From Candidatus Tayloriibacteriota bacterium (GTDB taxonomy: Bacteria > Patescibacteriota > Minisyncoccia > Phycocordibacterales > PALSA-1337): a DNA stretch of 64,000 bases. The stretch is from positions 6,015 to 70,014 of the forward strand of contig JANNAN010000013.1 of the NCBI GenBank assembly GCA_031384385.1. Reading direction: 5' to 3'. The position numbers and the translations under genes are program-made. Under the pieces are notes generated by a model. It was not told the DNA's origin. It worked only from the letters and a program-made list of their open reading frames with translations, and ran no database searches. This document shows, one piece after another, positions 26,247-50,336 of the stretch (position 1 is the stretch's first letter; the number at the start of each line of letters is the position of its first letter).

Positions 26247-27239
26247 ATGAAAAAAATAAGAGTTGCCATTAATGGCTTTGGCCGAATCGGTCGTGCATTT
26301 TATAAAGTAGCAAAAGAAAATCCAAATATTGAAATTGTTGCTGTTAATGATTTAACTTCTCTTGAAAATGTAGAATATCTTTTAAAATATGATTCTGTTT
26401 ATGGGAAAAGTGACTATACTTTGAAAGGTGTTGAATATTTATCTGAAAAAGATCCAACATTATTACCATGGGGTAAATTTAATATTGATGTAGTTATAGA
26501 ATCTACTGGGTTATTTACATCAAGCGATAAGGCTCAAGCCCATATTCTTGCTGGTGCAAAGAGAGTTGTTGTTTCTGCGCCAATAAAAGATGATGCAATG
26601 TCAGTTGTAAAAGGTGAGACTATTCTAATGGGAATGAATGAAGAAAAGCTTTCTACTTGTCAGATTTCTTCTAATGCTTCTTGTACAACAAATGCCGGAA
26701 GCCCATTGCTTGCAATTCTGGATGAAGTTATCGGTGTTGAAAAAGCAGTTCTAAATACTGTACATGCATATACCGCTAGTCAGGCAATTGTTGATGGACC
26801 AAGTAAAAAAGATATGCGAGAAGGACGAGCAGCAGCAGAAAATATTGTTCCCTCAACTACTGGAGCAGCTATTGCAGTAACAAAGGTTATGACAGGTCTT
26901 ACTGGACTTTTTGATGGCATTTCTATAAGAGTTCCTGTTATCGCTGGTTCTATAGTGGATGTAACATTTATTTCAAAGAAAAATACAACAGTTGAAGAAG
27001 TAAATGAAGCTTTGAAAAAAGCAGCTTCAGAAGATCGTTGGAAGGGAATATTTACAGTTACAGAAGAAGATTTAGTTTCTTCAGATATAAAAGGGAATCC
27101 ACATGCATCAATCGCAGATCTTGCATTTACAAAAGTAGTTGGTGGAAATTTGGTAAAAGTTTTAGCTTGGTATGACAATGAGATGGGGTACACACATACC
27201 CTCGTGAATCATGTCATTGCGGCAGGAAGATTAGTCTAA
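26247..27239 (+). CDS. gap: glyceraldehyde-3-phosphate dehydrogenase (type I). Last ~25 codons are GC-richer and coincide with the integration site of the downstream element
   Basis: INGFGRIGR NAD fold, catalytic SNASCTTN, C-terminal WYDNEMGY. Confidence 0.9.
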   Translation: MKKIRVAINGFGRIGRAFYKVAKENPNIEIVAVNDLTSLENVEYLLKYDSVYGKSDYTLKGVEYLSEKDPTLLPWGKFNIDVVIESTGLFTSSDKAQAHILAGAKRVVVSAPIKDDAMSVVKGETILMGMNEEKLSTCQISSNASCTTNAGSPLLAILDEVIGVEKAVLNTVHAYTASQAIVDGPSKKDMREGRAAAENIVPSTTGAAIAVTKVMTGLTGLFDGISIRVPVIAGSIVDVTFISKKNTTVEEVNEALKKAASEDRWKGIFTVTEEDLVSSDIKGNPHASIADLAFTKVVGGNLVKVLAWYDNEMGYTHTLVNHVIAAGRLV

Positions 27240-27268
27240 AACCCAGACTTCTAAAATTCAATAAATTT

Positions 27269-27296
27269 AAAGACCTAGTAAATCTAGGTCTTTTTT
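27269..27296 (+). terminator. rho-independent terminator after gap
   Basis: AGACCTAG-TAAAT-CTAGGTCT hairpin plus TTTTTT. Confidence 0.6.
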
Positions 27297-27381
27297 GTAC
27301 CTAGGCTCGTCTACCAAAGGTCGAAATTTATTAACTAAAAAGTCATTGTCCTGAAAAGGATCAGCCGATGTACAACGGCAG

Positions 27382-27696
27382 ATGCTACCAATGAAAAATA
27401 AACCTAAAAGCACTAGAGCAGTTACCTATCGGAGATACGGCATCCCCGCCCTCATCCTCGAGGGAAAATGGCTCACAGAAAAATATCGATTGAACATAGG
27501 TGATGTCGTCGATATCGATTATCAACCTAAAAAAATTCGACTGCGAAAGAACCCTACTCTTAGTAAAGAGCGACAAACCATGCTCAAAGAGAAGGCAGAA
27601 ATCCGCAAACGAAGAATCCAAGGATACGCACATGACACCATCACAAACCAAGATGAAAACGCTAGCCAGAGAAGCATTAAAGTTAGTGAAGGATAA
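27382..27696 (+). CDS. SymE-family / AbrB-fold swapped-hairpin protein (toxin-like or regulator)
   Basis: VTYRRYGIPALILEGKWLTEKYRLNIGDVVDIDYQPKKIRL matches the SymE pattern (T-Y-RY-IP-L-G-WL-G-G-V-V-L). Confidence 0.45.
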   Translation: MLPMKNKPKSTRAVTYRRYGIPALILEGKWLTEKYRLNIGDVVDIDYQPKKIRLRKNPTLSKERQTMLKEKAEIRKRRIQGYAHDTITNQDENASQRSIKVSEG

Positions 27697-27928
27697 AGCG
27701 CCGACAATTGTCGACGAACAGATCTTGCCTCACATGCTCGATGAAGTAGCGGAATTCAGCGGCGACATCATGGGAAAGCTCACCAATCTTGATGCGGAAA
27801 ATGACAAAGCCATAACAATGGCACACGGCATTATCCGGGACGGATTGTTTAGCGAAATCATGAGTCAGATCAATGAAACGATGCTGGTAGAAGCCGACAA
27901 GAGAATTACTAAATTATTCAAAAAATAA
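27632..27928 (+). CDS. hypothetical protein (start uncertain; overlaps previous gene in another frame)
   Basis: In-frame Met codons at 27632 and 27653 within track ORF 27500-27928. Helical, no motif. Confidence 0.3.
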   Translation: MTPSQTKMKTLAREALKLVKDKAPTIVDEQILPHMLDEVAEFSGDIMGKLTNLDAENDKAITMAHGIIRDGLFSEIMSQINETMLVEADKRITKLFKK

Positions 27929-28006
27929 AATCTCCACGCAGGGAGAGATCGGATCCGTCAGATAGATTCATTCTCTCAAAAAGCCTCCGGGAAGTCAATA
28001 ACCATA

Positions 28007-29152
28007 ATGAACACACAAAATATAACAACAAATAAGCCAAAGGTGCATGATAACTTCTTCGCGCTAATTGGAAACACCAAACCCTACTTCAAGGCAGCCT
28101 TCGAAGGCTTCGCCGGAACGGGAAAAACCTATACGGCAGCTAAGGTTGCCATAGGTCTACACAAGAGAGTCGGATCAAAGAAACCGGTCATCATCTTTGA
28201 CACCGAGAAGGCGGCTAAGTTTCTTAAGTCCATGTTCGCAGCAGAAGGGATAGAGGTACTGGTCCGTGAATCAAAATCCCTCGCTGACCTCAAGGAGACG
28301 ATGACTCGCATGAGAGAGGGTGCGAGCGATGTTCTCATCATCGACTCAATCAGCCATGTCTGGGAGGACTTCCTCAAATCATACGCAGAGAAGGTACGAC
28401 GCACCAGATTGGAATTTCAAGACTGGGGCGTGATCAAGCCTACATGGAAGACAGAATTCTCCGATGTCTTCGTACGTGATCCATATCACATCATCATGAC
28501 TGGTCGTGCTGGCTATGAGTACGAGAACGAGATCAACAAAGAGACTGGGAAAAGAGAAATTTATAAGTCGGGAATAAAGATGAAGGTTGAGGGAGAGACG
28601 GCATATGAGCCTGACCTGCTTGTCCTCATGGAACGCATGCAGGAAATGGAAGGAGGTTCTATCAAGAAGGTGACACGACAAGGAATTGTTATCAAAGATC
28701 GATCGACCGTAATCGACGGTAAGGTCTTCGAAAATCCTGACTTCAAGGATTTTGCACCTGCAGTTGAAGTGATGCTAGAAGCTCCTGAAAAACTTGAGAC
28801 TACGGCTGAACGTGATGCAGGAACGCTCTTCCGAACCGAGGAAGAAAAGTATGAGTGGAAACAGATGAAGAAGCGATGGCTCGAGGAGATTGAGAATTAT
28901 CTCGTCTCTGTTTGGCCAGGACAATCTGCCGATCAAAAGAAACTCAAGATCGATGCCATCCAGTTTGCCTTCAACACAATGAGTTGGACGGTAGTCGAAT
29001 CATTGCGACCCGAAGCACTGGAAGCGGGATTCGCAAAGGTTCAGGAGTTTGTACGAAAGCACACCGCACTTCAGAGCGCAGAGATGAGTGGTGAACCAAT
29101 AAAGGTCGAAAAGCCAGTCAAGAAGACAGAAGCCAAGGCAAAAACAAAATAA
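28007..29152 (+). CDS. phage-type RecA-like ATPase (AAA_24 / Sak4-like) with C-terminal extension
   Basis: Walker A GFAGTGKT, Walker B LIIDSIS, ~230-aa core typical of phage Sak4-like recombination ATPases, Lys-rich tail. Confidence 0.55.
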   Translation: MNTQNITTNKPKVHDNFFALIGNTKPYFKAAFEGFAGTGKTYTAAKVAIGLHKRVGSKKPVIIFDTEKAAKFLKSMFAAEGIEVLVRESKSLADLKETMTRMREGASDVLIIDSISHVWEDFLKSYAEKVRRTRLEFQDWGVIKPTWKTEFSDVFVRDPYHIIMTGRAGYEYENEINKETGKREIYKSGIKMKVEGETAYEPDLLVLMERMQEMEGGSIKKVTRQGIVIKDRSTVIDGKVFENPDFKDFAPAVEVMLEAPEKLETTAERDAGTLFRTEEEKYEWKQMKKRWLEEIENYLVSVWPGQSADQKKLKIDAIQFAFNTMSWTVVESLRPEALEAGFAKVQEFVRKHTALQSAEMSGEPIKVEKPVKKTEAKAKTK

Positions 29153-29265
29153 AGAAAGCACTCGGAGCTTGGCCACTGACTCAATCCTCATCGCAGTGGC
29201 GTGAGGATTGAGATCAGGAGCTAAGCATCAAGGATCGCCTACGGGCGCTTTCTTTCTTCATCAAA

Positions 29266-29832
29266 ATGGAAGAACACAAAAAATACAATTTAATACCGAA
29301 TAGTACGCAGTTACCAAATATTCTTCTAGACAAGATCATTCCTCTTATCCCTGAAGCTGAAGCACGATGCTTGATTTACATATGTCGTCGCACCTTCGGT
29401 TTCCAAAAAGAATCGGATCGGATTAGTTTTTCGCAATTCATGGAAGGGATCAAAGATAGGAGAGGAATAGTTCTTGATTATGGAACCGGACTATCCCGCC
29501 AGTCAGTTTCTCAAGGACTCAAGAATCTGGTCCGTGCAGGGGTAGTCATTTCAAGCAAAAATAGCAAGGGAAATTTCTACAAAATTAACCTTGAAATGGC
29601 TGTGGATAAAGTAGTCTACCTAGTAGACCAGTCTAGAAAATTGACCAAAAGTGGTCTAAAGAATAGACCGAAATCGGTCTACCTAGTAGACACACAAAAC
29701 CAAGGAAACAAAGAGAAACCAAGTATTAGGGGTTCTACTGATCCTCCTGTGGATAACCGCCCTGAGTTTTTGAGGCTCATGGCAGATCTCACACAGAAGT
29801 TCTCTTTAAAAACTACTAACCAAAAATCATGA
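29266..29832 (+). CDS. replication initiator / replisome-organizer-like winged-helix protein with internal iterons
   Basis: N-terminal wHTH-like segment (CLIYICRRTF..SRQSVSQGLKNLVRAGVV). Coding sequence contains a cluster of palindromic repeats (see repeat feature). Confidence 0.45.
   Translation: MEEHKKYNLIPNSTQLPNILLDKIIPLIPEAEARCLIYICRRTFGFQKESDRISFSQFMEGIKDRRGIVLDYGTGLSRQSVSQGLKNLVRAGVVISSKNSKGNFYKINLEMAVDKVVYLVDQSRKLTKSGLKNRPKSVYLVDTQNQGNKEKPSIRGSTDPPVDNRPEFLRLMADLTQKFSLKTTNQKS
29614..29691. repeat. iteron-like cluster: GTCTACCTAGTAGAC x2 plus related GTCTAG and GGTCTAAAGAATAGACC; candidate origin of replication
   Basis: Exact 15-mer palindrome at 29614-29628 and 29677-29691. Related palindromes at 29631-29636 and 29653-29669, all inside the rep-like gene, encoding repeated VYLVD peptide. 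Confidence 0.5.
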
Positions 29833-30242
29833 AGCAATTCTCATTTACCATAGAAGGCAACCAAGATGATCGACTTGGAAATGCTATACCAAAGATCAGA
29901 AAGACATACCGACAGCAATGGACACCTGAAGCCCAAAGATATACGGCATGGAAAGGATTCATACAAGAAGCATTTCTCAGGTCTCTTGTAGATATTGATT
30001 TCAAAGTTCACATAAGATTTCAGAGATTGGTGAAGAAACCAATAAAACTTGCTGAGGGTGAGAAAGCTATTATGGACATCCGTATTTTCTGGAAAGACGA
30101 AACACATGGTGACCCAGAGAATATATTCGGCTCGATTGCAGATGCACTCTTCTACAACGATAAGTACCTTGACGGCTCATTCAAAAGTGAACTCGCCAAG
30201 GATGGAAAAGGTCGAGTGGAAATAATTATCAATATAAATTAA
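29829..30242 (+). CDS. rusA: RusA-family Holliday-junction resolvase
   Basis: 137 aa. GDPENIFGSIADALFYNDKYLDGSF matches the RusA D-x-DN-x-K-x3-DAL catalytic region. Confidence 0.55.
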   Translation: MKQFSFTIEGNQDDRLGNAIPKIRKTYRQQWTPEAQRYTAWKGFIQEAFLRSLVDIDFKVHIRFQRLVKKPIKLAEGEKAIMDIRIFWKDETHGDPENIFGSIADALFYNDKYLDGSFKSELAKDGKGRVEIIININ

Positions 30243-30248
30243 AAAACA

Positions 30249-30626
30249 ATGACAGCAGAACAAACAGGAGTAATCAAAGATAAATTTATTCTAGAACTTA
30301 ATGAGCAGATTTGGCGTAAGGAAATGAATATCGCCTTTGACCTCAGTAAAATTCCAGATATTGAAAAACTCCGCGATGTTAGGTTCAAGGAACTTGATGG
30401 TCTTAATGCCGATCTAAAGCTCATAGATTCAACTGACACAACAAAACAGAGTCGAATAAAGAGAAAGGATCTAGAAAAGAAAATAGCCCTAGCTGAGGAT
30501 TTCACCTTGAAGTGTGATGAGACGATCGTTGTAATTAGAGACAATACCAATAAGGAAAAAGAAAAGGTTGACCAATTACAAGCCAGAATTAAATTCGCAG
30601 AAACCTATGGAATCGACAAAAATTAA
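30249..30626 (+). CDS. hypothetical coiled-coil protein
   Basis: 125 aa, charged/helical, no motif. Confidence 0.4.
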   Translation: MTAEQTGVIKDKFILELNEQIWRKEMNIAFDLSKIPDIEKLRDVRFKELDGLNADLKLIDSTDTTKQSRIKRKDLEKKIALAEDFTLKCDETIVVIRDNTNKEKEKVDQLQARIKFAETYGIDKN

Positions 30627-31300
30627 AATTAATGAGTTAAGACGAGCTGAGTATAACCCACGCATTATGCCAGAAAATGAAATGTCTGCGCTTAAGACAA
30701 GTATCAAGACCTTCGGCTTTGTCGAATCAGTAGTGGTAAATACCCACACCTGTGACCAATGTGGTGACAGAAAATGGGTACTGGTAGGGGGTCATCAGCG
30801 AACTACCGCCGTAGAGGGGCTTGTAGCACAAGGTGAAGCCATAAAAGGCATTGAAACCAAGGATGGAGTCACCCTCATTCCAGCCAACCTAGTTGATTTA
30901 CACCTTCCTGAAGAAAAGCTTTTGAATCTCGCCCTCAATAAAATCAAAGGAAAATGGGATGAGAAAAAACTCTTCGAAATTATTGTCGAGCTTAAGGAAT
31001 CACCATCCATTCCCGCTTCGGGATTTCGAGACGATGAGATCAGCCGAATACTCGATCAGACTCTTGAGGACGAGGAAGAGGATGAAGGTGAGGGCGACGG
31101 TGCCGACAAAGAACCTCGCTCAAAGCTTGGCGAAATCTATGAGCTCGGGTCCCACAGGCTCATATGTGGTGATTCAACAGATCCCGATACGTACAAAAAA
31201 CTTCTTGGAGAGGAAAGGGCTGATATGGTTTTCACTGACCCTCCATACAATGTGAACTATAAAAGTCGAGGAAATAAACTCAAAGAGGAAGGTAATGAGT
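30568..31300 (+). pseudogene. ParB-like nuclease domain fused to N4/N6 DNA methyltransferase, truncated after motif IV by IS insertion
   Basis: ParB-nuclease-like N-terminus (INELRRAEYNPRIM..GGHQR) and methyltransferase motif IV MVFTDPPYNV. Reading frame runs straight into the IS left inverted repeat at 31301. Catalytic motif I and TRD missing. Confidence 0.6.
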
Positions 31301-31369
31301 TGGCCCTCCCCCCAAATTTAATACACCAATCTTGTATAATTAATAGAAATAATTAAATATATAAGGAAT

Positions 31370-31627
31370 ATGAAAACACATAAAATATCACCAGAGTTAA
31401 AGGAACAAATAATTAACAGGGTAAAGAATGAAGGTATATCAGTAGCACAAGCAGTAAAAGATCATGGTGTATCTGATAACACAATATATGGTTGGATATC
31501 AAAGAAAGTAGAAGGACAACCTACATTAGCTGAAGTATTGAAATTAAGAAAAGAAAATGATGAATTGAAAAGACTTGTCGGTGATATCACATTGAAACTT
31601 TCTCTACCCCAAAAAAAGAAGTGGTAA
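31370..31627 (+). CDS. IS3-family transposase OrfA (HTH)
   Basis: 85 aa, helix-turn-helix GISVAQAVKDHGVSDNTIYGW, ends at the frameshift window. Confidence 0.7.
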   Translation: MKTHKISPELKEQIINRVKNEGISVAQAVKDHGVSDNTIYGWISKKVEGQPTLAEVLKLRKENDELKRLVGDITLKLSLPQKKKW

Positions 31628-32412
31628 CTGAATCTAAAACTCTCAGGGCCAGAGAGTTAGGTATATCTAGAAGTAGTCTGTATTACAAACAAAAGAAACC
31701 AGAGGAAGACTGGAAATTAAAATGTAAAATTGAAGAAATACTCCGAGAACATCCAAGTTATGGTTCTCCACGTATTGCCATAGCTTTAAAACGTAATCAT
31801 AAACCAATTGAAAGAGTGATGAAGCTCTTTGGTATTAAGGCATATCGTAGAAGAGGTAAGAAGTGGAAAAAAACTAAGAACATCAAGGTAGTATACCCAA
31901 ATCTTCTTTTAACAAATCATCCAATGTATGAGAATCATATCTGGGTATCTGACTTTACTTACATCCCATTTCAAGGAAAATTTGTATATGTTGCTACTGT
32001 TGAAGATTTGTTTACAAGAAAAATAGTTGGAGTGGCGGTATATACCACGCATGCTACACAATTGGTATTGTCAGCATTCATGTCTGCAATACATAACAAT
32101 CCTAGACCTCTAATATTCCATTCAGACAATGGAAGTGAGTATGATTCAGATATATTCATACATGCATTAAATACCGTTGGAGTTTCAATATCTAGATCAG
32201 CTCCAGGTTGTCCGTGGGAAAATGGATATCAAGAATCATTCTATGATAAATTTAAAATTGATTTAGGTGATCCTAGTAGATTCAAGACTCTTGGAGAATT
32301 AGTATATGAAATCTATCATCGTATTTATGTTTACAACAATACTAGAATACATACAGCACTTAAAATGTCTCCAGTTCAATTTGCATTAAAAATTCGTCAG
32401 GGATACAATTAA
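31621..32412 (+). CDS. IS3-family transposase OrfB (DDE integrase core), expressed as OrfAB by -1 frameshift
   Basis: In -1 frame relative to orfA. rve-type DDE motifs. Confidence 0.7.
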   Translation: MVTESKTLRARELGISRSSLYYKQKKPEEDWKLKCKIEEILREHPSYGSPRIAIALKRNHKPIERVMKLFGIKAYRRRGKKWKKTKNIKVVYPNLLLTNHPMYENHIWVSDFTYIPFQGKFVYVATVEDLFTRKIVGVAVYTTHATQLVLSAFMSAIHNNPRPLIFHSDNGSEYDSDIFIHALNTVGVSISRSAPGCPWENGYQESFYDKFKIDLGDPSRFKTLGELVYEIYHRIYVYNNTRIHTALKMSPVQFALKIRQGYN

Positions 32413-32509
32413 CTCAATACAAGATTAGTGTCTAAAGAAATGGGGGAGGTACATTCTCTCAAAAGAACTCGCCACACATCTCACGGGTAGACATATTCCC
32501 ATAGAAATA

Positions 32510-33343
32510 TTGCCATTCGATTTCAAAGAGATTTTGAAAGCTAAGCAGTATGAATATTCAGCAGACAAAATGTTGTTACCCGAGGAAAAAGCTAAACTTC
32601 AGGGATACATAACTCAATACATGACAAATGGCGGCTTTCCAGAAGTTGTCACAAAAGATGTTGAACCTCGTGGCTATCTTGATGTACTCTTTGATGCAGT
32701 GCTTTTCAAAGATGTCATAAAGCGTCACAAGGTCCGCTTCTCAAAACAGATAGACAATCTTGGATCGTATTTGATAAATAATGTTTCAAGTCAGTACACT
32801 GCTAGAAAACTTGCTAGCGTTCTCACATTCAAGAGTGACGTTACTGTGGCAAAATACCTTGATTATTTGATTGAGGCATACCTAGTTTTCTCCTTGGATC
32901 GTCATTCGACCAAAGCTACTATGAGATTACAGCTGCCAAAGAAAACCTATGTGGTAGATAACGGCCTCGTTACTGCCAAGGCGGTTCAGCATTCTCCTAA
33001 TAGTGGTAAGCTAATGGAGAATCTCGTATTTATGGAACTTGTAAAAAGAGGACATCAGCCAAACCGTGAATTGTTCTACTACAGGACTCGTAACGATCGA
33101 GAGATAGATTTTGTACTTAAAAAAGGGCATGAGGTGGTCGAACTGCTACAGGTTTCCTATGATTCTACTAGCCAGGATGTTGAGGAGAGAGAAGTAAAGG
33201 CACTAGTTGAGGCAGCTGAGGAATTGAAAGTCACGAAGCTCACTGTACTCACTTGGAATGAAAAGAGGGAAATGAAGAAGGACGGAATGACGATACAGTT
33301 TATTCCACTTTGGGAATGGCTAACAAATAATTCTAACGAGTAA
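32510..33343 (+). pseudogene. C-terminal fragment of an AAA-ATPase with DUF4143-like domain (5' part removed at IS boundary)
   Basis: Frame is open back to the IS right end (..SKELATHLTGRHIPIEILPFDF..) with no ATG. Downstream sequence (ELFYYRTRNDREIDFVL, GHEVVELLQVSY) resembles the DUF4143 C-terminal module of AAA ATPases. The AAA domain itself is absent. Confidence 0.45.
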
Positions 33344-33347
33344 AATT

Positions 33348-33878
33348 ATGGTAGGGATTATTTTTGAAGCACATGGCACGACATTTGATAACGAAGCACA
33401 CCTTGCCTCTGGTCACTTTGATGTCGAACTTTCTCCTCTCGGTATTAAACAGTCTCAAGAAATGGGAGAAAGGTACAAAGATGAGCACTTTGAGATAATT
33501 TTCTGCTCGGATTTGCAAAGATCATATAAAAGTGCGGAGATTGCATTCGGCAATAGGTTTCCGATTGTGAAAGATGCACGATTGCGAGAATGCGACTATG
33601 GTGATTATACTCAACAACCTAGCGAAATAGTTGATCGACAAAAACCACAGAGAATTCATGAACCCTTTCCTAAAGGAGAAAGCTATGAGCAAACTACAGA
33701 AAGGATGAAGGCATTTCTCGAGGATCTTAGGAAGAAATGTGAAAACAGGAGAGTTATGATTATAGGTCATAGAGCCACTCAGTACGCACTCGAAAATCTT
33801 ATAAAGGGTGTTCCACTCGAAGAAATTATTCCTGCACCATGGAAATGGCAGCCGGGATGGAAGTATGAGTTGGAGTAA
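33348..33878 (+). CDS. histidine-phosphatase superfamily (phosphoglycerate-mutase-like) protein, noncanonical AHG instead of RHG
   Basis: IIFEAHGTTFDN..ELSPLG..IIFCSDLQRS..IIGHRATQYAL matches branch-1 histidine phosphatase layout. The Arg of the RHG motif is Ala. Confidence 0.55.
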   Translation: MVGIIFEAHGTTFDNEAHLASGHFDVELSPLGIKQSQEMGERYKDEHFEIIFCSDLQRSYKSAEIAFGNRFPIVKDARLRECDYGDYTQQPSEIVDRQKPQRIHEPFPKGESYEQTTERMKAFLEDLRKKCENRRVMIIGHRATQYALENLIKGVPLEEIIPAPWKWQPGWKYELE

Positions 33879-33888
33879 GTATTAAAAT

Positions 33889-34278
33889 ATGGAAAAGAAA
33901 TTCAAACATTTAGAATTTATCCAGTCAGTCATTAATAGAATGACAAACAATTCTTTTTTACTGAAAGGTTGGTGTTTGAGTATAATTGGAGCAATTTTTG
34001 CACTTAGAGGTGGAAATTCCTCAACCAGCATACTTCCACTCTTTGTAATTATGTTTTGGCTTCTAGATAGTTATTATCTTTCTCAGGAGAGACTATTTAT
34101 TGCTTTATATAACGACGTCGTTCCTAGATCAGAGGATAAAATCGATTTCTTAATGCATACAAAAAAGTTTTGTAGAGGAAGAAACACATGGTGGAGATCA
34201 TTTTTTTCTCATACCCCTGTGATTTTCTACGGATTTATTTTGATCGTAATCATATTTATTAATTCTAATTCTATATAG
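33889..34278 (+). CDS. small 3-TM membrane protein (candidate membrane effector partner of the downstream TIR protein)
   Basis: 129 aa. Amphipathic N-terminal helix then three hydrophobic helices. 10 bp after the phosphatase gene and 4 bp before the TIR-like gene. Confidence 0.5.
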   Translation: MEKKFKHLEFIQSVINRMTNNSFLLKGWCLSIIGAIFALRGGNSSTSILPLFVIMFWLLDSYYLSQERLFIALYNDVVPRSEDKIDFLMHTKKFCRGRNTWWRSFFSHTPVIFYGFILIVIIFINSNSI

Positions 34279-34282
34279 ATTT

Positions 34283-34768
34283 ATGGCAAGAAAAGTATTT
34301 TTTAGTTTTCATCATCAGGGCGACATATTGAGGGTAGGGCAGATTCGTAATAGCTGGCTTCTTAGAGATGAGCGCGAGGATCTGGGCTTCGTAGATGCGG
34401 CAGCATGGGAATCAATTAAAAGAAATGGTGATGAGGCTATAAAGCGATGGATCGATACTCAATTAAGTGGAACATCTGTTACGGTTGTGTTGATTGGACA
34501 AGAAACTGCTAGTAGACCGTGGGTCATTCATGAGATCATTGAGAGTCATAATAAAGGAAATGGGCTTTTGGGTATAAGAATACATAATGTTAAAGATTTG
34601 CACGGTCGCTACTCACTCCAAGGATCTAACCCGTTCGATCAAGTAAGTATCACTTCTACAGGTAAATCCTTGTCTCAAATTTACCCTGTCTATGACTGGG
34701 TAACAAACAATGGACGTGAAAATATGCCTATTTGGATAGAAGAAGCTGCACGAAAAGCGAGCAGATAA
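34283..34768 (+). CDS. TIR-like domain protein of the DUF1863 / Thoeris ThsB-like family
   Basis: MARKVFFSFHHQGDILRVGQIRNSWL..FVDAAAWESIKRNGDEAIKRWIDTQLSGTSVTVVLIGQETASRPWVIHEIIESHNKGNGLLGIRIHN..SNPFD follows the conserved ThsB/DUF1863 signature (KxVFFSFH, W..D..L..VL.G.T..WV..EI..G...GI.I). Confidence 0.65.
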   Translation: MARKVFFSFHHQGDILRVGQIRNSWLLRDEREDLGFVDAAAWESIKRNGDEAIKRWIDTQLSGTSVTVVLIGQETASRPWVIHEIIESHNKGNGLLGIRIHNVKDLHGRYSLQGSNPFDQVSITSTGKSLSQIYPVYDWVTNNGRENMPIWIEEAARKASR

Positions 34769-36045: not shown

Positions 36046-36118
36046 TTCCGATTTCGTCCTCGTTCTCTACCACAAGGCAGAGGGACTCATCAGCGAGAAT
36101 AACATTCTCGGATCGAAA
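36046..36118 (-). ncRNA. hammerhead ribozyme (type III topology) HHR-1
   Basis: Minus-strand RNA: UUUCG-AUC|CGAGAAU..AUUCUCG-CUGAUGA-GUCCC..(extended stem II)..GAGGAC-GAAA-UCGGAA. CUGAUGA and GAAA cores, AUC cleavage triplet, three closing stems. Confidence 0.75.
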
Positions 36119-36124
36119 AGGTTT

Positions 36125-36574
36125 TTAGAGAACCTTTGAAACTCTTGATACCGCTACTATGCCAACGAATACGCACCAAATGGCAAGAAAGACGAAACAG
36201 AGTAGCACGACCGTTTTGCTTCTTCCATCGCCATATGCACAGTACAAGTCTGATCTTAGACCAGCTTCTTCATACATATAGAAGAATGAGCAGAAGATTA
36301 TCCACAGAAATGCAAATGATGCTGTCGTTGATACCATACCGTTGGTGATAAGCACGATCGTTCCAATGGGTATGAACCAAGAGGACCAGCTAATGACACC
36401 ATCGTACGGCAGAAGGTGATAGAGCATCCAAGCAGTTGCGCCTCGCCTTGGGTCCCACAGTACATTGCTGTACTTGCGGGAGTACTGATACAAACACCAC
36501 CATGTAACTGACAGTGTCCAAAGCAGAATAATAATCGTAATTTTCACAAAGAACTCCTTTCTCAAAGAATCCAC
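36125..36574 (-). CDS. hypothetical 4-TM membrane protein
   Basis: 149 aa with four hydrophobic helices. Confidence 0.45.
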   Translation of the reverse strand: MDSLRKEFFVKITIIILLWTLSVTWWCLYQYSRKYSNVLWDPRRGATAWMLYHLLPYDGVISWSSWFIPIGTIVLITNGMVSTTASFAFLWIIFCSFFYMYEEAGLRSDLYCAYGDGRSKTVVLLCFVFLAIWCVFVGIVAVSRVSKVL

Positions 36575-36637
36575 GACTTCATGTCATGAACTCTATAAAG
36601 TGGACATTTGAGGAAAATGTCCGAACCCCCGATTTGC

Positions 36638-37495
36638 CTAACTGTTGACAGCCTCGAGGAGCTTGTTCCAGTCTTTCGCGCCGGAAGGCGTGGAGCAATG
36701 ATTGGTGCATACCACCTTGACGTCACCCTTGGCAAAGCCGCGGAGACCATCGAAGGCGAATACGAACGGATCATCGTGATGGTTGCCGGCAGTGATAATG
36801 CCGATCTTCTTCACACCTTTTTGAATGGCGTGGAGCGCGATGATGGGTCCGTAAGGCATGACACCCTGACAGTTAACCATTGCCTGACCTCTCGGTCCCA
36901 TGCAAGCATAACCACCCTTGGGAATCATGCAGTCGGTGAGGACTACTTCCGGCTGTCGTTCAAGTGCGTCGAGCGCCTGATCGAATCCAGAAACGATTGT
37001 GAGATCGTATACTCCAAGAAGCTCCTTCGCCGAGGCGATATTTGCCGGATCATCTTCCACTACGAGAATGCGAGTCTTACCCGCAGTTCCGATGGCTTGA
37101 ACGATCACGTCATCCCTCCAATCATTGAAGGGTATCACGCCGGTCTTGTGAACGGCAACTTCACGGACACCTTCCATGAGTTGAGCGAAGATTTTCGCCT
37201 TGCTCGACTTTTGCAGTCTTCGAGCAATTGAAGCCGAGGCTTCATGAGGATCGATGGTCTTGTACCAGTCGTTTCCCTCTGGATGCGTCCAAGCGTCGAG
37301 GAGAATGACGTCGGCGTCAACAGCTTCCTTGATGAAAGCCTCAGCGTGATCTCCATGGAGATATCCGCCGAAGCCGACATAGGTGAGCTTCTGACCAGTC
37401 TTCTCTTCGAGATCCCGATGAACGACACCGCCTGGTCCATACAAAGGATCATTGGTGCCGTGATTTGCCATGCAATGAAGCAGAATCTTTTTCAT
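36638..37495 (-). CDS. hypothetical protein with central CheY-like receiver (REC) domain
   Basis: ILVVEDDPANIASAKELLGVYDLTIVSGFDQALDALERQPEVVLTDCMIP fits the REC consensus including acidic pocket and D-phosphorylation position. Flanking N- and C-regions unrecognised. Confidence 0.5.
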   Translation of the reverse strand: MKKILLHCMANHGTNDPLYGPGGVVHRDLEEKTGQKLTYVGFGGYLHGDHAEAFIKEAVDADVILLDAWTHPEGNDWYKTIDPHEASASIARRLQKSSKAKIFAQLMEGVREVAVHKTGVIPFNDWRDDVIVQAIGTAGKTRILVVEDDPANIASAKELLGVYDLTIVSGFDQALDALERQPEVVLTDCMIPKGGYACMGPRGQAMVNCQGVMPYGPIIALHAIQKGVKKIGIITAGNHHDDPFVFAFDGLRGFAKGDVKVVCTNHCSTPSGAKDWNKLLEAVNS

Positions 37496-37524
37496 TCGTT
37501 TCTCTTTCGTTGTTGATTGTTATG

Positions 37525-37603
37525 TAAAGAACTGAACTCTCAGGGTTCGCGACATCAGTCGTAAACCCAGTTGAGTCCCTGTAACCATTGCTAGTCACAG
37601 GGG
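37525..37603 (-). ncRNA. family-1 structured element E1 (two-hairpin motif, unknown class)
   Basis: Minus-strand: hairpin2-ACUCAACUG-GGUUUACGAC-UGAU-GUCGCGAACCC-UGAGAGUUCAGUUCUUUAC. Shares linear motifs and covarying 11-bp hairpin with six other copies. Confidence 0.55.
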
Positions 37604-37623
37604 TTGAGTGAGATTTCAGGTAC

Positions 37624-38361: not shown

Positions 38362-38424
38362 AAGAATAGTCTTTCTGTACTGGTGTATTGTTTCGGCACA
38401 CCTACTTGAAGCCGTTTTATATTC

Positions 38425-38504
38425 CAAAGAACTGAACTCTGAGAGCTCACAACGGATTTGTTGCGAACTCAGTAAAGTGCTCATTTTAGGTGAATGAGCA
38501 AAAC
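38425..38504 (-). ncRNA. family-1 structured element E3
   Basis: GGUUUUGCUCAUUCACCUAAAAUGAGC-ACUUUACUG-AGUUCGCAAC-AAAUCC-GUUGUGAGCUC-UCAGAGUUCAGUUCUUUG. Compensatory changes relative to E7 (G-C to A-U). Confidence 0.55.
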
Positions 38505-38517
38505 CGAATCGAGCAAA

Positions 38518-38925: not shown

Positions 38926-38980
38926 TATTTCGTTTCTTTCTTGGTTGAGTTTGTTTGTGATTACTAAATTTGAAAGAGCT

Positions 38981-39029
38981 TTCTGTTTCGTCCTTCTGGA
39001 CTCATCAGTCGGAATACATTCCGAGACAG
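38981..39029 (-). ncRNA. hammerhead ribozyme HHR-2
   Basis: Minus-strand: CUG-UC|UCGGAA-UGUA-UUCCGA-CUGAUGA-GUCC-AGAA-GGAC-GAAAC-AGA. Minimal ~49-nt hammerhead with GUC triplet. Confidence 0.8.
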
Positions 39030-39099
39030 TCGGTCAGTAAAAATTTACCGACCATTCACACAATTTTTAGGTAGTGTGCGTACCTCTATGTGGTAGAAC

Positions 39100-39390: not shown

Positions 39391-39416
39391 ATATATAAAG
39401 AGCAGTCGTTGTTGTG

Positions 39417-39497
39417 TTCTGTTTCGTCCTTCACCTTGGCTTCGTCTGAAGCACAAGGGGACTCATCAGTACAGATTATATCTGTAGACAGAAGGGG
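39417..39497 (-). ncRNA. hammerhead ribozyme HHR-3 (extended stem II)
   Basis: Minus-strand: CCCCUUCUG-UC|UACAGAU-AUA-AUCUGUA-CUGAUGA-GUCC-(long imperfect stem II CCUUGUGCUUC..GAAGCCAAGG)-GGAC-GAAAC-AGAA. Confidence 0.75.
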
Positions 39498-40494: not shown

Positions 40495-40546
40495 GGCTGC
40501 TTTCGTCGTTTTCGACTCATCAGTCTGGACAATATCCAGAGAGCAG
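40495..40546 (-). ncRNA. hammerhead ribozyme HHR-4
   Basis: Minus-strand: CUGC-UC|UCUGGA-UAUUG-UCCAGA-CUGAUGA-GUCG-AAAA-CGAC-GAAA-GCAG. Stem II GUCG/CGAC is a compensatory variant of GUCC/GGAC. Triplet CUC. Confidence 0.75.
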
Positions 40547-40596
40547 AGGTTGATTCCGTACAATCAACCTGATTAATGTGAATGCGGTTCGGCGCA

Positions 40597-41051: not shown

Positions 41052-41118
41052 AGTAATCTGCCACTGATGATCGCGTGAGTGGCAAGTTGCTATGAACAAT
41101 ATTTTATTTAAAGAACTT

Positions 41119-41172
41119 TTCTGTTTCGTCCTTTCGGACTCATCAGTCGAGACTCGCATCTCGAGACAGAAC
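41119..41172 (-). ncRNA. hammerhead ribozyme HHR-5 (near-consensus)
   Basis: Minus-strand: UUCUG-UC|UCGAGAU-GCGA-GUCUCGA-CUGAUGA-GUCC-GAAA-GGAC-GAAAC-AGAA. GNRA loops on stems I and II, GUC triplet. Confidence 0.85.
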
Positions 41173-42065: not shown

Positions 42066-42088
42066 AAATTCTACTTGTTGATTGTTTG

Positions 42089-42169
42089 AAAAGAACTGAA
42101 ATTCTATGAATCTGCGACTTCAGTCGTAGACTCAATAAAGTGCAGATTTTGATGGAATCTGCTAAAACC
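42089..42169 (-). ncRNA. family-1 structured element E4
   Basis: GGUUUUA-GCAGAUUCCAUCAAAAUCUGC-ACUUUAUUG-AGUCUACGAC-UGAA-GUCGCAGAUU-CAUAGAAUUUCAGUUCUUUU. Confidence 0.55.
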
Positions 42170-42852
42170 TGACCTCTAGCAATAGTGATCCACACGGATC
42201 GTATTGAAAGAGTAATCCCACCGACTCCCCGAGTACCTCTGATATCTCCACTTTCGTGAAAGTGTCAGTAGGCGACTGCGCTCTCGCTTGGAGAGCCGAC
42301 GACCTGTGTCGTCTGCGAACTTCAGTGTTCGCGATCTCCTTCTGTGGGAGATATCGAGTACACCATCGGTGGTGCTCGATTTTACAGGCTTAAAGCCAGG
42401 AAACTGCACCGTTGCACTACCGTATGATGTACTCATATTTTTATTTCGGTTGGTTGTTTTTGAAATATTCGCAGTTCGGAATCACCATGAATGTTCCTTG
42501 ACCAGGTACACACTCACAACTATCCGATGATGTATAAGAGATGGGGTTGTTATCCCGCATGAGGTTATGCCTCTAATCTCCCGTACACCTTGTTCTTTCC
42601 AGGGATGCATGCCCACGTAACGAACGTGGATTGGTCGAGCATTCCCTTTCGACAACAACCTTTCGGTTGAGGTGAAAGAACTAGAGCCCTACAAAATTCT
42701 GCCAATCTACTGAAAACCCTTGCAAGTTTTCTAAGTAATCGGAGCTAGAACAGTGTAGACCCCACACAATGGCTTCTGCGTAGCCTGTGCATATAACTGT
42801 CCTTAATAATTAATTCAGACCAATTATATGCACAAGCATTTCAAAATTTATT

Positions 42853-42931
42853 TAAAGAACTAAACTCTTTGGGCCAGCAACATTGTTGTAAGCCCAATAA
42901 AGTGCAGATTTTGATGGAATCTGCGAAAACC
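42853..42931 (-). ncRNA. family-1 structured element E5
   Basis: Same hairpin-2 sequence as E4 (GCAGAUUCCAUCAAAAUCUGC). Hairpin 1 GGGCUUACAAC-AAUG-UUGCUGGCCC. Not followed by an ORF for >400 nt. Confidence 0.5.
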
Positions 42932-43005
42932 ATTTGCTTTTCGGGGTTGATTATTGTCCGATAGCAGTGCGACTCTTTTTTGTTAGGAAAAGAGCTAGAG
43001 AAACC

Positions 43006-43804: not shown

Positions 43805-43859
43805 TTCTGTTTTCGTCTTTCAAGACTCATCAGTCGGAATACATATTCCGAGAACAGAG
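43805..43859 (-). ncRNA. hammerhead ribozyme HHR-6 (1-nt insertion at cleavage triplet)
   Basis: Minus-strand: CUCUG-UUC|UCGGAAU-AUGU-AUUCCGA-CUGAUGA-GUCU-UGAA-AGAC-GAAAAC-AGAAG. Stem II GUCU/AGAC compensatory variant. Extra U and extra A suggest a slightly degenerate copy. Confidence 0.65.
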
Positions 43860-43931: not shown

Positions 43932-44294
43932 TTAATGACTTCCATGGTCAGTCGAAGCGAGAACACTACGGTGTACCCACTGCACGGCTCCAAAGCCGGT
44001 GTCGTAGGATCTCTCGTAGTACACTGTTGCGTTTACATGCACAGGCTGGCCGTTGGTGAAGCCAGTCTCACCGGGAAAAAATCCCTTTTTGCCTTTGATT
44101 TTTCCTTCGAGAAAACGGACTTCGATTCCGTTCGCGCTCACCTTGGAAACAATTCCGGTGGCACTCGCTTCCTCACTCCATTTTTGTGGAGTAGCCAACT
44201 TTTTTGGTAAAGTGGCATAGAAACCGAAACCGATCAGGGCAAAGCCCAGAACAACCAAGAGAACCGCTAATGTCTTCTTCATAGAACTCTCCAT
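43932..44294 (-). CDS. hypothetical secreted/membrane-anchored protein
   Basis: Signal peptide/TM MKKTLAVLLVVLGFALIGFGFYA. Confidence 0.45.
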   Translation of the reverse strand: MESSMKKTLAVLLVVLGFALIGFGFYATLPKKLATPQKWSEEASATGIVSKVSANGIEVRFLEGKIKGKKGFFPGETGFTNGQPVHVNATVYYERSYDTGFGAVQWVHRSVLASTDHGSH

Positions 44295-44301
44295 TTTAAT
44301 T

Positions 44302-44380
44302 TAAAGAACTGAAATCTATGAATCTACGACTTCAGTCGCAGACTCAATAAATTGATCATTTGAGGATTAATGATCAAACC
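44302..44380 (-). ncRNA. family-1 structured element E6
   Basis: Fills the whole intergenic space. Hairpin 2 UUGAUCAUU..AAUGAUCAA (different sequence, same fold). Hairpin 1 AGUCUGCGAC-UGAA-GUCGUAGAUU. Confidence 0.55.
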
Positions 44381-44381
44381 G

Positions 44382-44636
44382 TTACCCCATTTTGCACCGC
44401 AGGATTTTGCGGCAACCTCTTGCGAGAAGGTCACTCAGCCATGCTGCCCAGAGCGAACGTCGCCAGAAGCGCCGAAGCAGAAGGTATATAACCAGCGCCT
44501 CGATCACCAACGCTACCACAAGACACACGAGTGTCAGACAGTAGACGAAGGTTTCCGGAAATATTTGCCCCAGAGTAGCCTGCGTAAGTTTGTAGAGCAT
44601 TTCCATGCTCTGTCGCATTATTTCATTGAGTTGCAT
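44382..44636 (-). CDS. hypothetical small membrane protein
   Basis: 84 aa with one long hydrophobic helix. Confidence 0.4.
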   Translation of the reverse strand: MQLNEIMRQSMEMLYKLTQATLGQIFPETFVYCLTLVCLVVALVIEALVIYLLLRRFWRRSLWAAWLSDLLARGCRKILRCKMG

Positions 44637-45937: not shown

Positions 45938-46696
45938 TTACGGTTGGAGCCTCTTCTTTTTCTCATCAAAGCCAACATTGAAGATACTTCTGAATGTTTC
46001 TGCGAATTCCTTACTTCTTATAAAAATACCAGAAAGTTTTTTGCCAAGAATTGCAATTTTAACACGGTCTTCACAGATTGATATATCACATAATATTGGA
46101 TACTTATCTGCATCTACCTTCACCCTCTCACCGTCTTCACTTGTAGGGACTTCTCCATTTTTGTAAGTATACATTACTTTAGATTTGATGTTTTTACCTA
46201 GGCGCATACCTCGATATCTATCTCGCTCTTGTTTCGAAAATATTTCATCAACTAGATCCTTTGAGTATATTAAATAGCTGATGGCGTTTTCATTTTGTCC
46301 AAGAAAAAACTCTTCATGTAGACTTACCAATCCATCTCGACCTTCAAAATATTTTACGATAGGTTTTTCACCACCCTCTCTCTGAACACTCTTTATTTGA
46401 GGAATGACATCCTTTAATTTCTTTGACTGTTCATCAAGCATTATTTTTCGCTGCTCAACATATGTCTCTAATCTTTCTGGCGGCTCAGCTTGGTAATGAG
46501 TTTTCTTGCCAACTGTGGTTTCGGTCACCAGACCTTTTTTTGCAAGAGATTCCAACACGACATAGGTAGTCGATCGATTTAATTTGGTCTTTTTTGAGAG
46601 ATCAAGCACAGAGCTGTTCTCCATAGAAAGCAATGATATATAAACAATTGCCTCCTTCTCGCTCAGCCCGATGTCTTGTAGGTATTTTTCCAACAT
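45938..46696 (-). CDS. TrmB-family transcriptional regulator
   Basis: N-terminal HTH LGLSEKEAIVYISLL..SVLDLSKKTKLNRSTTYVVLESLAKKGLV typical of TrmB. AT-rich host-like composition. Confidence 0.6.
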   Translation of the reverse strand: MLEKYLQDIGLSEKEAIVYISLLSMENSSVLDLSKKTKLNRSTTYVVLESLAKKGLVTETTVGKKTHYQAEPPERLETYVEQRKIMLDEQSKKLKDVIPQIKSVQREGGEKPIVKYFEGRDGLVSLHEEFFLGQNENAISYLIYSKDLVDEIFSKQERDRYRGMRLGKNIKSKVMYTYKNGEVPTSEDGERVKVDADKYPILCDISICEDRVKIAILGKKLSGIFIRSKEFAETFRSIFNVGFDEKKKRLQP

Positions 46697-47119: not shown

Positions 47120-47437
47120 ATGACTGACGAAGAAAAAAATGGAATATGGGCAGAACTAGAAAAAAAATCTCCTGATTTGATCAAGGCTTTTCTATCGCTT
47201 AAGAACGAAGATGAGCTAAAGGCATTTTTTAGAGATCTTATGAGTGAAAGAGATTTACGAGAGTTTGCGATGAGGTGGGAGGTGGCGAAGAAACTAGACG
47301 CCGGTACTCCATTTTCGCAGATTCAGGAAGAATCTGGTGAATCACCAGTAACAATCACAAAGATCAACCGATGGTTGAAGGAAGGTTGTGGTGGATATAA
47401 AATGATGATTGATCGACTCAATGGTGATCAAAAATAA
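47120..47437 (+). CDS. YerC/YecD-family TrpR-like protein
   Basis: FAMRWEVAKKLDAGTPFSQIQEESGESPVTITKINRWLKEGCGGYKMMIDRL matches the YerC/YecD helix-turn-helix family signature (RW.VA..L..G..Y..I...G.S..TI.R....L..G.GGY). Confidence 0.6.
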   Translation: MTDEEKNGIWAELEKKSPDLIKAFLSLKNEDELKAFFRDLMSERDLREFAMRWEVAKKLDAGTPFSQIQEESGESPVTITKINRWLKEGCGGYKMMIDRLNGDQK

Positions 47438-47519: not shown

Positions 47520-48518
47520 ATGCAAACAGTCGATCAGACTCATGGGACCTACGTGGTTACCTATGATGTCGCTAGTCGCATTCAATCATTCCGCTCGAAA
47601 GGTTTTCATGTCCCGAATCAAAATGATTCAATGTTCGATAGATTCCACCTGCGTCTTCTTGAAACGATGCAAGATGCTCTACCAGGTGTGATGATTGACT
47701 CTATTGATATGAGCAAGCTTCGGCTTGAAATCTGGGAACAGGTGGAGGGTCGAATGGTAGATCTCAATCGTCAGGCTGTTCTCAGTACATGCCCAGAAAT
47801 CGCTGATTCGAATCCTAAAAGCGAGGGTTTGTTACTTAACGTCAACCGACTGTTCGACAAGAACGGACAGTTGATTGGGTACGGTCCTCGTCCTGGATTT
47901 GAATTGTTGACAAATCAACTTGATAAATTGGCAAGAAAAATTGCCGGCCGATCCGTCATTCTCATCGAGGACGGCGCATTTACTGGTGGCACTCTCAGCT
48001 TTGTTTTGAAGGAGCTCGAGAGTCGAGGTATTAAGGTCACTGCCATAATTATTGGTTTCTGCTGTAATGGCTCGCGAACTGTTCTCCGGAAGGCGTTCAG
48101 TGAAGAGCTTGTTATGGTACATCCGGTCACTGATTTGGTGGACTGGATTCCTGACCATGATCTCATTCCGTTCATTCCGAATTGTGGACGTGTCCTCGGT
48201 GAACATTCGATGCAAGGCTATATGCCGATCCGAACGGTCAGTGGTTTCAGTTGTGCTTATCCCTACATTCTTCCTTTCGGCAGGATCGAGGAGTGGGCGA
48301 GTCTACCGGACGAAGGCGCTCGAGCTGTATCGAGACTTTGTCTTGATACTAGTATCGAAATCTTCAGCCATGTAGGGTGTAAAATCACGATAGGAAAGCT
48401 TCTGGAACTGAATCCGAGGGTCTCATTGCCTATCAGGATCGGTTCTCATGAGGTGTTGCCTGCCTTGGATATGGAGATTGTTAGCTTTTTGAAGCAGATG
48501 CGAGAAAAGCTAGAATAG
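47520..48518 (+). CDS. phosphoribosyltransferase-domain protein (type I PRTase fold with N- and C-terminal extensions)
   Basis: AAGGGAGG RBS. PRPP-binding loop VILIEDGAFTGGTL. Function of extensions unknown. Confidence 0.5.
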   Translation: MQTVDQTHGTYVVTYDVASRIQSFRSKGFHVPNQNDSMFDRFHLRLLETMQDALPGVMIDSIDMSKLRLEIWEQVEGRMVDLNRQAVLSTCPEIADSNPKSEGLLLNVNRLFDKNGQLIGYGPRPGFELLTNQLDKLARKIAGRSVILIEDGAFTGGTLSFVLKELESRGIKVTAIIIGFCCNGSRTVLRKAFSEELVMVHPVTDLVDWIPDHDLIPFIPNCGRVLGEHSMQGYMPIRTVSGFSCAYPYILPFGRIEEWASLPDEGARAVSRLCLDTSIEIFSHVGCKITIGKLLELNPRVSLPIRIGSHEVLPALDMEIVSFLKQMREKLE

Positions 48519-50065: not shown

Positions 50066-50262
50066 CGCTTGCTATTAAACAAGCGTTTGTTTATGATGAT
50101 GTTAACGAACTTTGACAGCTGAATTTCAAATCCTCGCTCGCCTTTCAAGATCACAATTTCATTGCTATTTTGGAAGACGAGCGTACTAGGAATTTAAATC
50201 AAATTGAATCCCGTGTTAAAATAAAGTTATGAAAAAGTCGAAAAACACGGAAAATCTGCCAG

Positions 50263-50336
50263 CATGGTACCGATGTGAAATGGGGTATACGTATACTCTG
50301 GTACGGCACGTAATTGAAGCTGGAAAATTGATTTAA
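50263..50336 (+). repeat. diverged copy B of the gap 3' terminus (encodes AWYRCEMGYTYTLVRHVIEAGKLI-stop), displaced att-associated remnant
   Basis: ~60% nt identity but conserved translation relative to gap 27165-27239. Confidence 0.6.

Follow-up and report, generated by a model that had tools for sequence, protein, structure and literature searches.

A putative lambda-type origin of replication inside the initiator gene of a truncated prophage in a Patescibacteria genome

INTRODUCTION

What is the function of a cluster of palindrome-like repeats that lies entirely within a protein-coding sequence? This question is raised by a 64,000-nucleotide stretch of contig JANNAN010000013.1 (GenBank assembly GCA_031384385.1, Candidatus Tayloriibacteriota bacterium), referred to here as the window, in which such repeats are embedded in a gene at 29266-29832. 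The first-pass annotation of this DNA regarded the gene product as a replication initiator similar to the O protein of phage lambda, and the repeats as an origin located in the gene of its own initiator. To our knowledge, there is almost no experimental knowledge of how the phages of Patescibacteria (Candidate Phyla Radiation, CPR) replicate. A full-text literature search for CPR phage origins, or for O-type origins with DnaA boxes, found no specific description. We compared the homologous gene from 73 loci in a codon alignment, with about 60 homologs carrying the comparison. The sequence data point to the cluster being the initiator-binding part of a lambda-type in-gene origin of a temperate tailed phage of Patescibacteria, a reading to which we assign a probability of about 0.8.

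RESULTS

The repeats are four equivalent dyads read in three frames

The 15-mer GTCTACCTAGTAGAC was confirmed to occur as two exact copies (29614-29628 and 29677-29691) with starts 63 bp apart, and none of 100 shuffles matched its observed count. It had been described as palindromic. Dyad symmetry is present (6+3+6, GTCTAC-CTA-GTAGAC), but the 15-mer is imperfect as a palindrome. Both copies are part of a set of four equivalent 17-bp dyads with 6-nt arms and a 5-nt spacer (RGTCTA-N5-TAGACC), which are referred to as iterons 1-4 (Table 1) and whose starts are spaced by 17, 23, and 23 bp. The sequences GTCTAG and GGTCTAaagaaTAGACC, previously listed as related palindromes, were both found between the two copies; however, they are units 2 and 3 of the four equivalents. 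When the window was searched for GTCTA-N5-TAGAC with up to one mismatch, six matches were obtained versus 1.28 expected. Four of the six are the iterons, and no further copy was present in the rest of the element, for example upstream of the operon.

All four iterons are located in codons 116-143 of the plus-strand open reading frame (ORF) 29266-29832, which reads ...DKVVYLVDQSRKLTKSGLKNRPKSVYLVDTQ... in this region. The iterons start at codon positions 3, 2, 1, and 3, and the same DNA motif is consequently translated as VYLVD, SRKLT, GLKNRP, and VYLVD. The repeated peptide VYLVD pointed out earlier is thus indeed encoded twice, but since one dyad motif is read in three frames, it is a by-product of the DNA repeat. 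A degenerate fifth iteron at 29574-29590 (TTCTACAAAATTAACC) was considered and rejected, because in homologs this sequence trails the conserved wing peptide GN(F/Y)Y(K/Q)INL and is invariant with respect to iteron type.

The array lies in a lambda-O-like initiator gene

The Pfam family PF04492 (Phage_rep_O) matched residues 14-101 of the encoded 188-residue protein with 38.8 bits (gathering score 28.7), and PHROG 678 ('replication initiation O-like') matched it with an E value of 2e-19. The Phage_rep_org_N domain of SPP1 G38P-type proteins was absent from the Pfam matches at E ≤ 0.1. An initiator of the WH1-WH2 type (RepA/RepE/pi) was not indicated either, as Pfam yielded Phage_rep_O alone and the AlphaFold 2 (AF2) model contained one winged helix-turn-helix (wHTH). 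This single wHTH spans about residues 14-107 (predicted local distance difference test score, pLDDT, 74-90), with the predicted recognition helix at residues 78-91 and the wing at residues 94-107. Residues ~125-165 were modeled with pLDDT <55 and are followed by a short C-terminal helix; the linker encoded by the repeats and the adjacent A-rich tract is presumably disordered. We dropped a structure-based family assignment, because the nearest Foldseek matches in the PDB were generic winged-helix proteins (CodY, MarR, and ArsR-type regulators, all at E > 0.05) and a profile search of PDB sequences with the initiator gave no match. The earlier proposal of a lambda-O-like initiator with the origin in its own gene gains support from the Phage_rep_O match above the gathering score, and from lambda itself, whose iterons lie at corresponding codons and share the 6+5+6 geometry.

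The dyads are conserved and covary across homologs

The initiator has 229 homologs, overwhelmingly from metagenome-assembled genomes (MAGs) of Patescibacteria/Parcubacteria and from IMG/VR viral contigs. Every homolog that is at least 48% identical contains four units at the same place and with the same spacing, and the consensus of these iterons is RGTnnn-N5-nnnACC. The inner triplet of the half-site differs between lineages (CTA, TCA, TAA/AAA, CAA, GCA, TCG, CCA, and TTC), and within one element it is common to all four units and both arms. Half-site triplet identity was 0.746 within elements versus 0.487 between them. At the three variable arm positions, each of which contained several Watson-Crick pair types, complementarity reached 0.79 (50 distinct sequences), compared to 0.05-0.31 for slid partners and 0.505 ± 0.015 for permuted columns (maximum of 0.567 in 2000 permutations). 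The first-pass annotation had named absence of the repeats from homologous elements as one of the results that would speak against an origin; instead, they occur in the same place and vary together with the protein, as described below.

The codon alignment indicated constraint on the DNA itself. Among 38 non-redundant homologs, synonymous codon identity rose from 0.40 for the N-terminal domain to 0.71 for the iterons and 0.90 for the A-rich tract. Across the origin, only 8 of 58 sequences contained indels, whereas the 22 codons past it had them in 49 of 58. Dyad repeats inside the gene, with CACAAAA/ACAAAAG tracts after them, are present even in Phage_rep_O relatives of 30-40% identity (Chloroflexi and Terriglobia MAGs, viral contigs).

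The predicted recognition helix tracks the iteron type

The half-site triplet changes together with two residues located where the predicted recognition helix begins, and the helix-start motif G-L-x-R-x-S/A sorts almost perfectly with the half-site. ARAS was paired with GTTCA in 16 of 17 cases (the remaining one being ARGS), SRQ(S/A) with GTCTA in 12 of 14 (the remaining two being SKQA), and SRP(S/A/T) with GTTAA/GTAAA in 13 of 13. Six rarer pairs were also observed: SREA and SRQS with GTCAA, VRAS with GTCCA, ARSS with GTTCG, SRRS with GTGCA, and TRKY with GTTTC. In contrast to the helix motif, the adjacent Sak4-like gene is not tied to iteron type, as copies 82-88% identical to that of the window go with four types. 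Such a pattern would be expected of iterons that are read by the initiator.

One contig and one MAG of the comparison set contain two initiators of this family each. In IMG/VR contig 3300025323_000513 (loci L041 and L057), the iteron types are GTCTA and GTAAA/GTTAA, and in MAG UBA5187 (loci L019 and L022) they are GTAAA/GTTAA and GTTCA. Such co-resident initiators with unlike iterons would fit a role of origin specificity in determining incompatibility.

An A-rich tract and two DnaA boxes accompany the array

Iteron 4 runs into an A-rich tract of 36 nt that contains no T, a longer T-free stretch than any other in the window. It is composed of ~10-nt AAAC(M)AAG-like repeats and starts with ACACAAAA, as does the tract past lambda iteron 4. 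Covariation between the two AAACCwAG copies within the tract was sought, and no clear pattern emerged. The motif CACAAAA/ACAAAAG directly follows the last iteron in lambda (L074, 619-665) and in the distant Phage_rep_O genes of loci L071, L072, L073, L036, and L069. It may be a family-wide origin element that goes beyond plain AT-richness.

The window contains five perfect DnaA boxes versus 0.82 expected, and two of these bracket the iteron array. They were overlooked in the first pass and are conserved across homologs at the level of the DNA. Both positions are filled (by a perfect box or one with a single mismatch) in most short-form homologs, with box 1 at a gene offset of approximately +333/336. 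Box 1 has the fixed codons xxT-GTG-GAT-AAr in 20 of 21 sequences, whereas box 2 is encoded as CCT-GTG-GAT-AAC in all 11 homologs with the peptide PVDN; for comparison, gene-wide codon usage is 22% for GTG, 63% for GAT, and 22% for CCT. Lineages in which the PVDN box has decayed have an inverted box, TTATCCACA, encoded as LST ~10 nt downstream. The density of perfect boxes was 1.39 per kb in the rep genes versus 0.053 per kb in 377 kb of flanking DNA. Short-form initiators (≤200 residues) had boxes upstream in 18 of 25 and downstream in 14 of 25 cases, whereas for long-form initiators, which have an extra C-terminal domain, these numbers were only 2 of 13 and 1 of 13. Iteron plasmids characteristically have DnaA boxes beside their iterons, and DnaA aids opening and helicase delivery there (PMC4980987).

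Operators, hairpins, centromeres, and peptide repeats explain less of the data

Dyad symmetry is typical of operators, and the sites could in principle bind the O-like protein or another repressor (autoregulation, or a roadblock in an early operon) without any origin function. The generic wHTH fold, with the regulators named above as its closest structures, would fit such a role, and some databases label the homologs 'predicted transcriptional regulator'. However, the position, number, and geometry of the sites and the trailing A-rich tract match the annotated origin of lambda, and the four sites are placed in coding sequence and not at a promoter, with no other copy upstream of the operon. 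The bracketing DnaA boxes also argue against operators, and the A-rich tract, where synonymous constraint is strongest, would be superfluous to them. We therefore regard a purely regulatory role as quite unlikely. Hairpins in RNA or single-stranded DNA (ssDNA), acting in mRNA stability, translation control, priming, or packaging, would account for the compensatory changes that preserve arm complementarity, as in any conserved hairpin. Independent hairpins, however, do not need a half-site that is common to four units and both arms and changes in all of them together, nor would all eight half-sites of one element be expected to track the recognition-helix motif. The non-complementary cells in the alignment are mostly A.A, T.T, C.A, and A.C, and not G.T wobbles. 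No Rfam family reached its gathering score in 27000-34500, the permissive E-value scan having covered only 34500 onward. Hairpins are thus a very unlikely explanation.

Binding by another protein of the element, as at a centromere for the ParB-domain protein or at a packaging (pac) site, deserves even less credence. Clustered palindromes are common in centromeres, and a gene with a ParB_N domain, syntenic in 48 loci, is located 0.9 kb downstream of the array. Yet in relatives, ParB_N forms a fusion with an N6/N4 DNA methyltransferase, an architecture that is not that of a partition protein, and the terminase-region genes of intact relatives are about 3-4 kb away. Moreover, the iteron type follows the N-domain motif of the initiator, and the layout is homologous to the lambda origin. 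Scarcely credible, finally, is that the DNA repeat is a mere trace of a VYLVD repeat selected in the protein. In its favor are the two encoded copies of VYLVD and the recurrence of K-x-V-x-x-V-(D/N)-(T)-Q in homologs, but units 2 and 3 have the same dyad in other frames and yield unrelated peptides. Dyad symmetry is meaningless for a peptide, and the synonymous sites are constrained in a region that is predicted to be disordered.

The candidate origin region is part of an IS-truncated prophage

The in-gene array lies in an island at about 27.2-50.3 kb with a GC content of 0.37-0.50, compared to ~0.30 for the host. The island sits in the 3' end of the glyceraldehyde-3-phosphate dehydrogenase (GAPDH) gene gap, whose native 3' end is displaced 23 kb rightward (Table 1). 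The GAPDH insertion site is common to relatives L001, L002, L003, L039, and L042. The order Sak4-like ATPase, initiator, RusA-like resolvase, and ParB_N-methyltransferase is kept in about 45 related loci; this order, together with the PHROG Sak4-like and RusA-like matches, bears out the earlier assignment of the two adjacent genes. Relatives with a 95%-identical initiator are genomes of tailed phages and contain genes for portal, Mu-F, and HK97 capsid proteins. The similarity of the window to all relatives ends at 31298, at an IS3-type insertion sequence (IS); what survives of the prophage is therefore no more than its left ~4 kb. This remnant lacks the terminase, portal, and capsid genes that intact relatives possess, and no phage structural genes were detected when 20 island ORFs were scanned against PHROG and Pfam.

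Table 1. Positions of the origin components, neighboring genes, and other features in the window
Feature	Position	Strand	Description
Sak4-like AAA_24 ATPase	28007-29152	+	Conserved upstream neighbor; Pfam PF13479; PHROG 1366 and 124; syntenic in 46 loci
Replication initiator gene, lambda-O-like, 188 aa	29266-29832	+	PF04492, PHROG 678, AF2 model, 229 homologs
DnaA box 1 TGTGGATAA (reverse complement of TTATCCACA)	29601-29609	+	Perfect consensus; ends 3 bp before iteron 1
Iteron 1 AGTCTAcctagTAGACC	29613-29629	.	6+5+6 dyad
Iteron 2 AGTCTAgaaaaTTGACC	29630-29646	.	Codon phase unlike unit 1; contains GTCTAG (29631)
Iteron 3 GGTCTAaagaaTAGACC	29653-29669	.	Third codon phase
Iteron 4 GGTCTAcctagTAGACA	29676-29692	.	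Best-kept dyad across homologs, 0.90-0.98 complementary at variable positions
A-rich, T-free tract AGACACACAAAACCAAGGAAACAAAGAGAAACCAAG	29688-29723	+	Candidate unwinding or ssDNA-binding/helicase-entry region
DnaA box 2 TGTGGATAA	29748-29756	+	Perfect; starts 24 bp past A-rich tract
RusA-like Holliday junction resolvase	29829-30242	+	Conserved downstream neighbor; PHROG 6537, E 1e-9; syntenic in 44 loci; no Pfam match
ParB_N / N6-N4 methyltransferase gene, truncated	30568-31356	+	Intact relatives encode 427 aa; end of similarity to relatives at 31298
IS3-type insertion sequence	31370-32412	+	orfA HTH_Tnp_1 31370-31627, orfB rve 31621-32412; cuts prophage
Left junction, attL region	27160-27347	+	Element supplies replacement 3' end of gap (GAPDH)
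Displaced native 3' end of gap, attR region	50262-50335	+	Beside tyrosine integrase 48891-49898
Hammerhead ribozyme copies	41118-41172, 39416-39494, 38980-39032, 43805-43859, 40495-40548; weak copy 36052-36112	-	
Second repeat copies	36540-36640, 37515-37620, 38417-38517, 42080-42180, 42845-42945, 44292-44392, 44775-44875		Fold on minus strand

To the right of the IS, the segment 32510-34768 encodes a DUF4143/Mrr-like protein, a histidine phosphatase, and a ThsB-type TIR protein (Thoeris-like, 34283-34768). These genes are defence-like or accessory and occur in no relative within 6 kb of the rep gene. Beside the integrase, we observed a TrmB-type wHTH gene (45938-46696, minus strand) with a weak match to the PHROG 'DnaD-like helicase loader', as well as Trp-repressor-like (47120-47437, plus strand) and phosphoribosyltransferase-like (47520-48518, plus strand) genes, the latter two being syntenic with the integrase in L041.

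A small-ORF array with ribozymes occupies the right part of the island

Between 36 and 45 kb, the island contains an array of small unannotated minus-strand ORFs with hammerhead ribozymes between them. Five to six hammerhead copies with intact CUGAUGA...GAAAC cores were found; one exceeded the Rfam gathering score (49.6 versus 48.5 bits), and four more had E values of 6e-6 to 1e-4. The GC content of this stretch is 0.44-0.50, versus 0.30 for the host. The hammerheads alternate with a second repeat family of seven copies (~85-100 nt each), which has no Rfam match. On the minus strand, this repeat folds into a 7-bp hairpin and a long interrupted stem, with compensatory changes in 9 of 25 pairs. 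An integron reading of the small-ORF array at 35-47 kb was rejected, because the integrase is Xer/XerA-like and far under the integron-integrase cut-offs, and because the repeats are hammerhead ribozymes and the other structured repeat. Stop-codon recoding as a reason for the missing long ORFs at 38-46 kb was also rejected, as ignoring any single stop restored no long frames.

DISCUSSION

A proposed mechanism and the points that weigh against it

If the array is a lambda-type origin, initiator dimers would bind the four 17-bp dyads (RGTCTA-N5-TAGACC) via their N-terminal winged helix. Occupancy of all four dyads would lead to an O-some-like nucleoprotein complex that strains the adjacent A-rich tract, and this strand-asymmetric tract would serve as the entry or unwinding region. 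Host DnaA bound to the two flanking boxes could then recruit the host helicase, as at iteron plasmids. Host DnaA is proposed for this task because both a P-type loader and the C-terminal domain of O are absent. The same idea draws on the long-form relatives, which have the C-terminal domain and mostly no boxes. A broader proposal, to which we would give slightly less than even odds, is that short (~180-residue) O-like initiators define a P-independent form of the lambda origin, in which DnaA at two boxes replaces the O C-terminal domain and P, and that the ~60 variants provide a readable code relating residues 77/79 to half-site bases 4-6.

Several observations weigh against this interpretation. 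The similarity of the initiator to lambda O is marginal at the protein level: NCBIfam TIGR01610 (phage_O_Nterm) remained under its cut-off (31.8 versus 45.5), and hhalign aligned the initiator with lambda O over 47 columns only, with 50% probability. The initiator has no counterpart of the C-terminal half of lambda O and ends at residue 188 after a short tail. No helicase, primase, P, DnaC, or DnaB homolog was found in the conserved module, nor any loader or helicase in intact relatives, and helicase recruitment lacks an explanation unless DnaA performs it. Recognition of the boxes in Patescibacteria is, in turn, assumed from the general DnaA consensus, which may not be that of the host. The A-rich tract is only 63% A+T and has ordinary duplex stability (z 0.1-0.8) without a local minimum. 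A thermodynamic test for a DNA unwinding element did not single out the tract, the weakest nearby duplex being the intergenic segment 30214-30250, ~520 bp off. Initiator binding and origin firing are what we infer from sequence, and the correlation between helix and iterons is confounded by shared descent and tight linkage; because both lie ~100 bp apart within one gene, the link stays correlative. Lastly, the window copy is located in a prophage remnant cut by an IS, and its origin may be intact yet stranded. The earlier suggestion of a complete module that replicates autonomously after excision was thus overstated, as the module contains no helicase, primase, or loader, and the IS-truncated element has lost its terminase, portal, and capsid genes.

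Implications

The window locus and its ~60 relatives would extend the lambda solution, an origin within the initiator gene, to Patescibacteria hosts. The putative origin is compact and synthesizable, comprising about 156 bp (29601-29756) and a 188-residue protein, and the homologs form a natural series of matched initiator/iteron pairs that can be used for specificity swaps. Substitution of host DnaA for the missing phage loader is a testable hypothesis. If true, the recognition code would allow the origin specificity and the incompatibility of phages of Patescibacteria to be predicted from sequence. For annotation, the locus is a warning that a strongly conserved 'linker' peptide can reflect overlapping DNA and not the protein. 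These results are valuable for the comparative series and for making CPR phage replication accessible to experiment, and do not amount to a new principle.

Comparison with known origins

Lambdoid origins consist of iterons and an AT-rich tract in the middle of gene O (PMC7466680). In the lambda genome (NC_001416), the annotated iterons occupy O codons 117-145, compared to codons 116-143 for the units in the window. The Phage_rep_O domain spans residues 22-115 in lambda and 14-101 in the window, and in both cases the iterons come just past the domain; those of lambda start two codons past it. The lambda unit (TCCCTC-AAAAC-GAGGGA, 18 bp as annotated) and the window unit (GGTCTA-N5-TAGACC, 17 bp) both have the 6+5+6 layout. 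Start-to-start spacings are 20/24/23 bp in lambda and 17/23/23 bp in the window, roughly two helical turns. Past the last unit, lambda continues with ACACAAAAGACAC... and the window with ACACACAAAACCAAGG..., in both cases an A-rich, strand-asymmetric tract starting with ACACAAAA. The number of iterons is not fixed among lambdoid relatives, which include Stx phages with six.

The differences from lambda are also clear. The window initiator has 188 residues and no C-terminal half, whereas lambda O has 299 residues, and the downstream gene is RusA-like instead of P. Two DnaA boxes flank the window array; in contrast, the lambda O-P region contains no DnaA box, even when one mismatch is allowed. 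The AT-rich tract of lambda is the least stable 30-mer of gene O (-30.3 versus a mean of -40.7, ~3 standard deviations), whereas the tract in the window is not a stability minimum. The host of the window element, a member of Patescibacteria, is also unlike that of lambda.

Other systems share individual features with the putative window origin. The bacteriophage SPP1 protein G38P, a 'replisome organizer', binds repeats in its own coding sequence, with oriL located within gene 38, and SPP1 has its own loader and helicase next to this gene. G38P belongs to a different Pfam family (Phage_rep_org_N), and the window module has no SPP1-like adjacent loader and helicase. Iteron plasmids (P1 oriR, F, RK2 oriV, and pSC101) resemble the window in having clustered initiator sites beside DnaA boxes and an A/T-biased tract. 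However, their Rep proteins are of the WH1-WH2 type and bind direct repeats as monomers, and the origin lies outside the rep gene, whereas the window has a single-wHTH Phage_rep_O protein and dyad sites inside the gene. By the sequence criteria tested, the window origin would thus belong to the lambda-type in-gene iteron origins; it is a member that misses one lambda feature, the C-terminal domain with P, and gains one plasmid-like feature, the flanking DnaA boxes.

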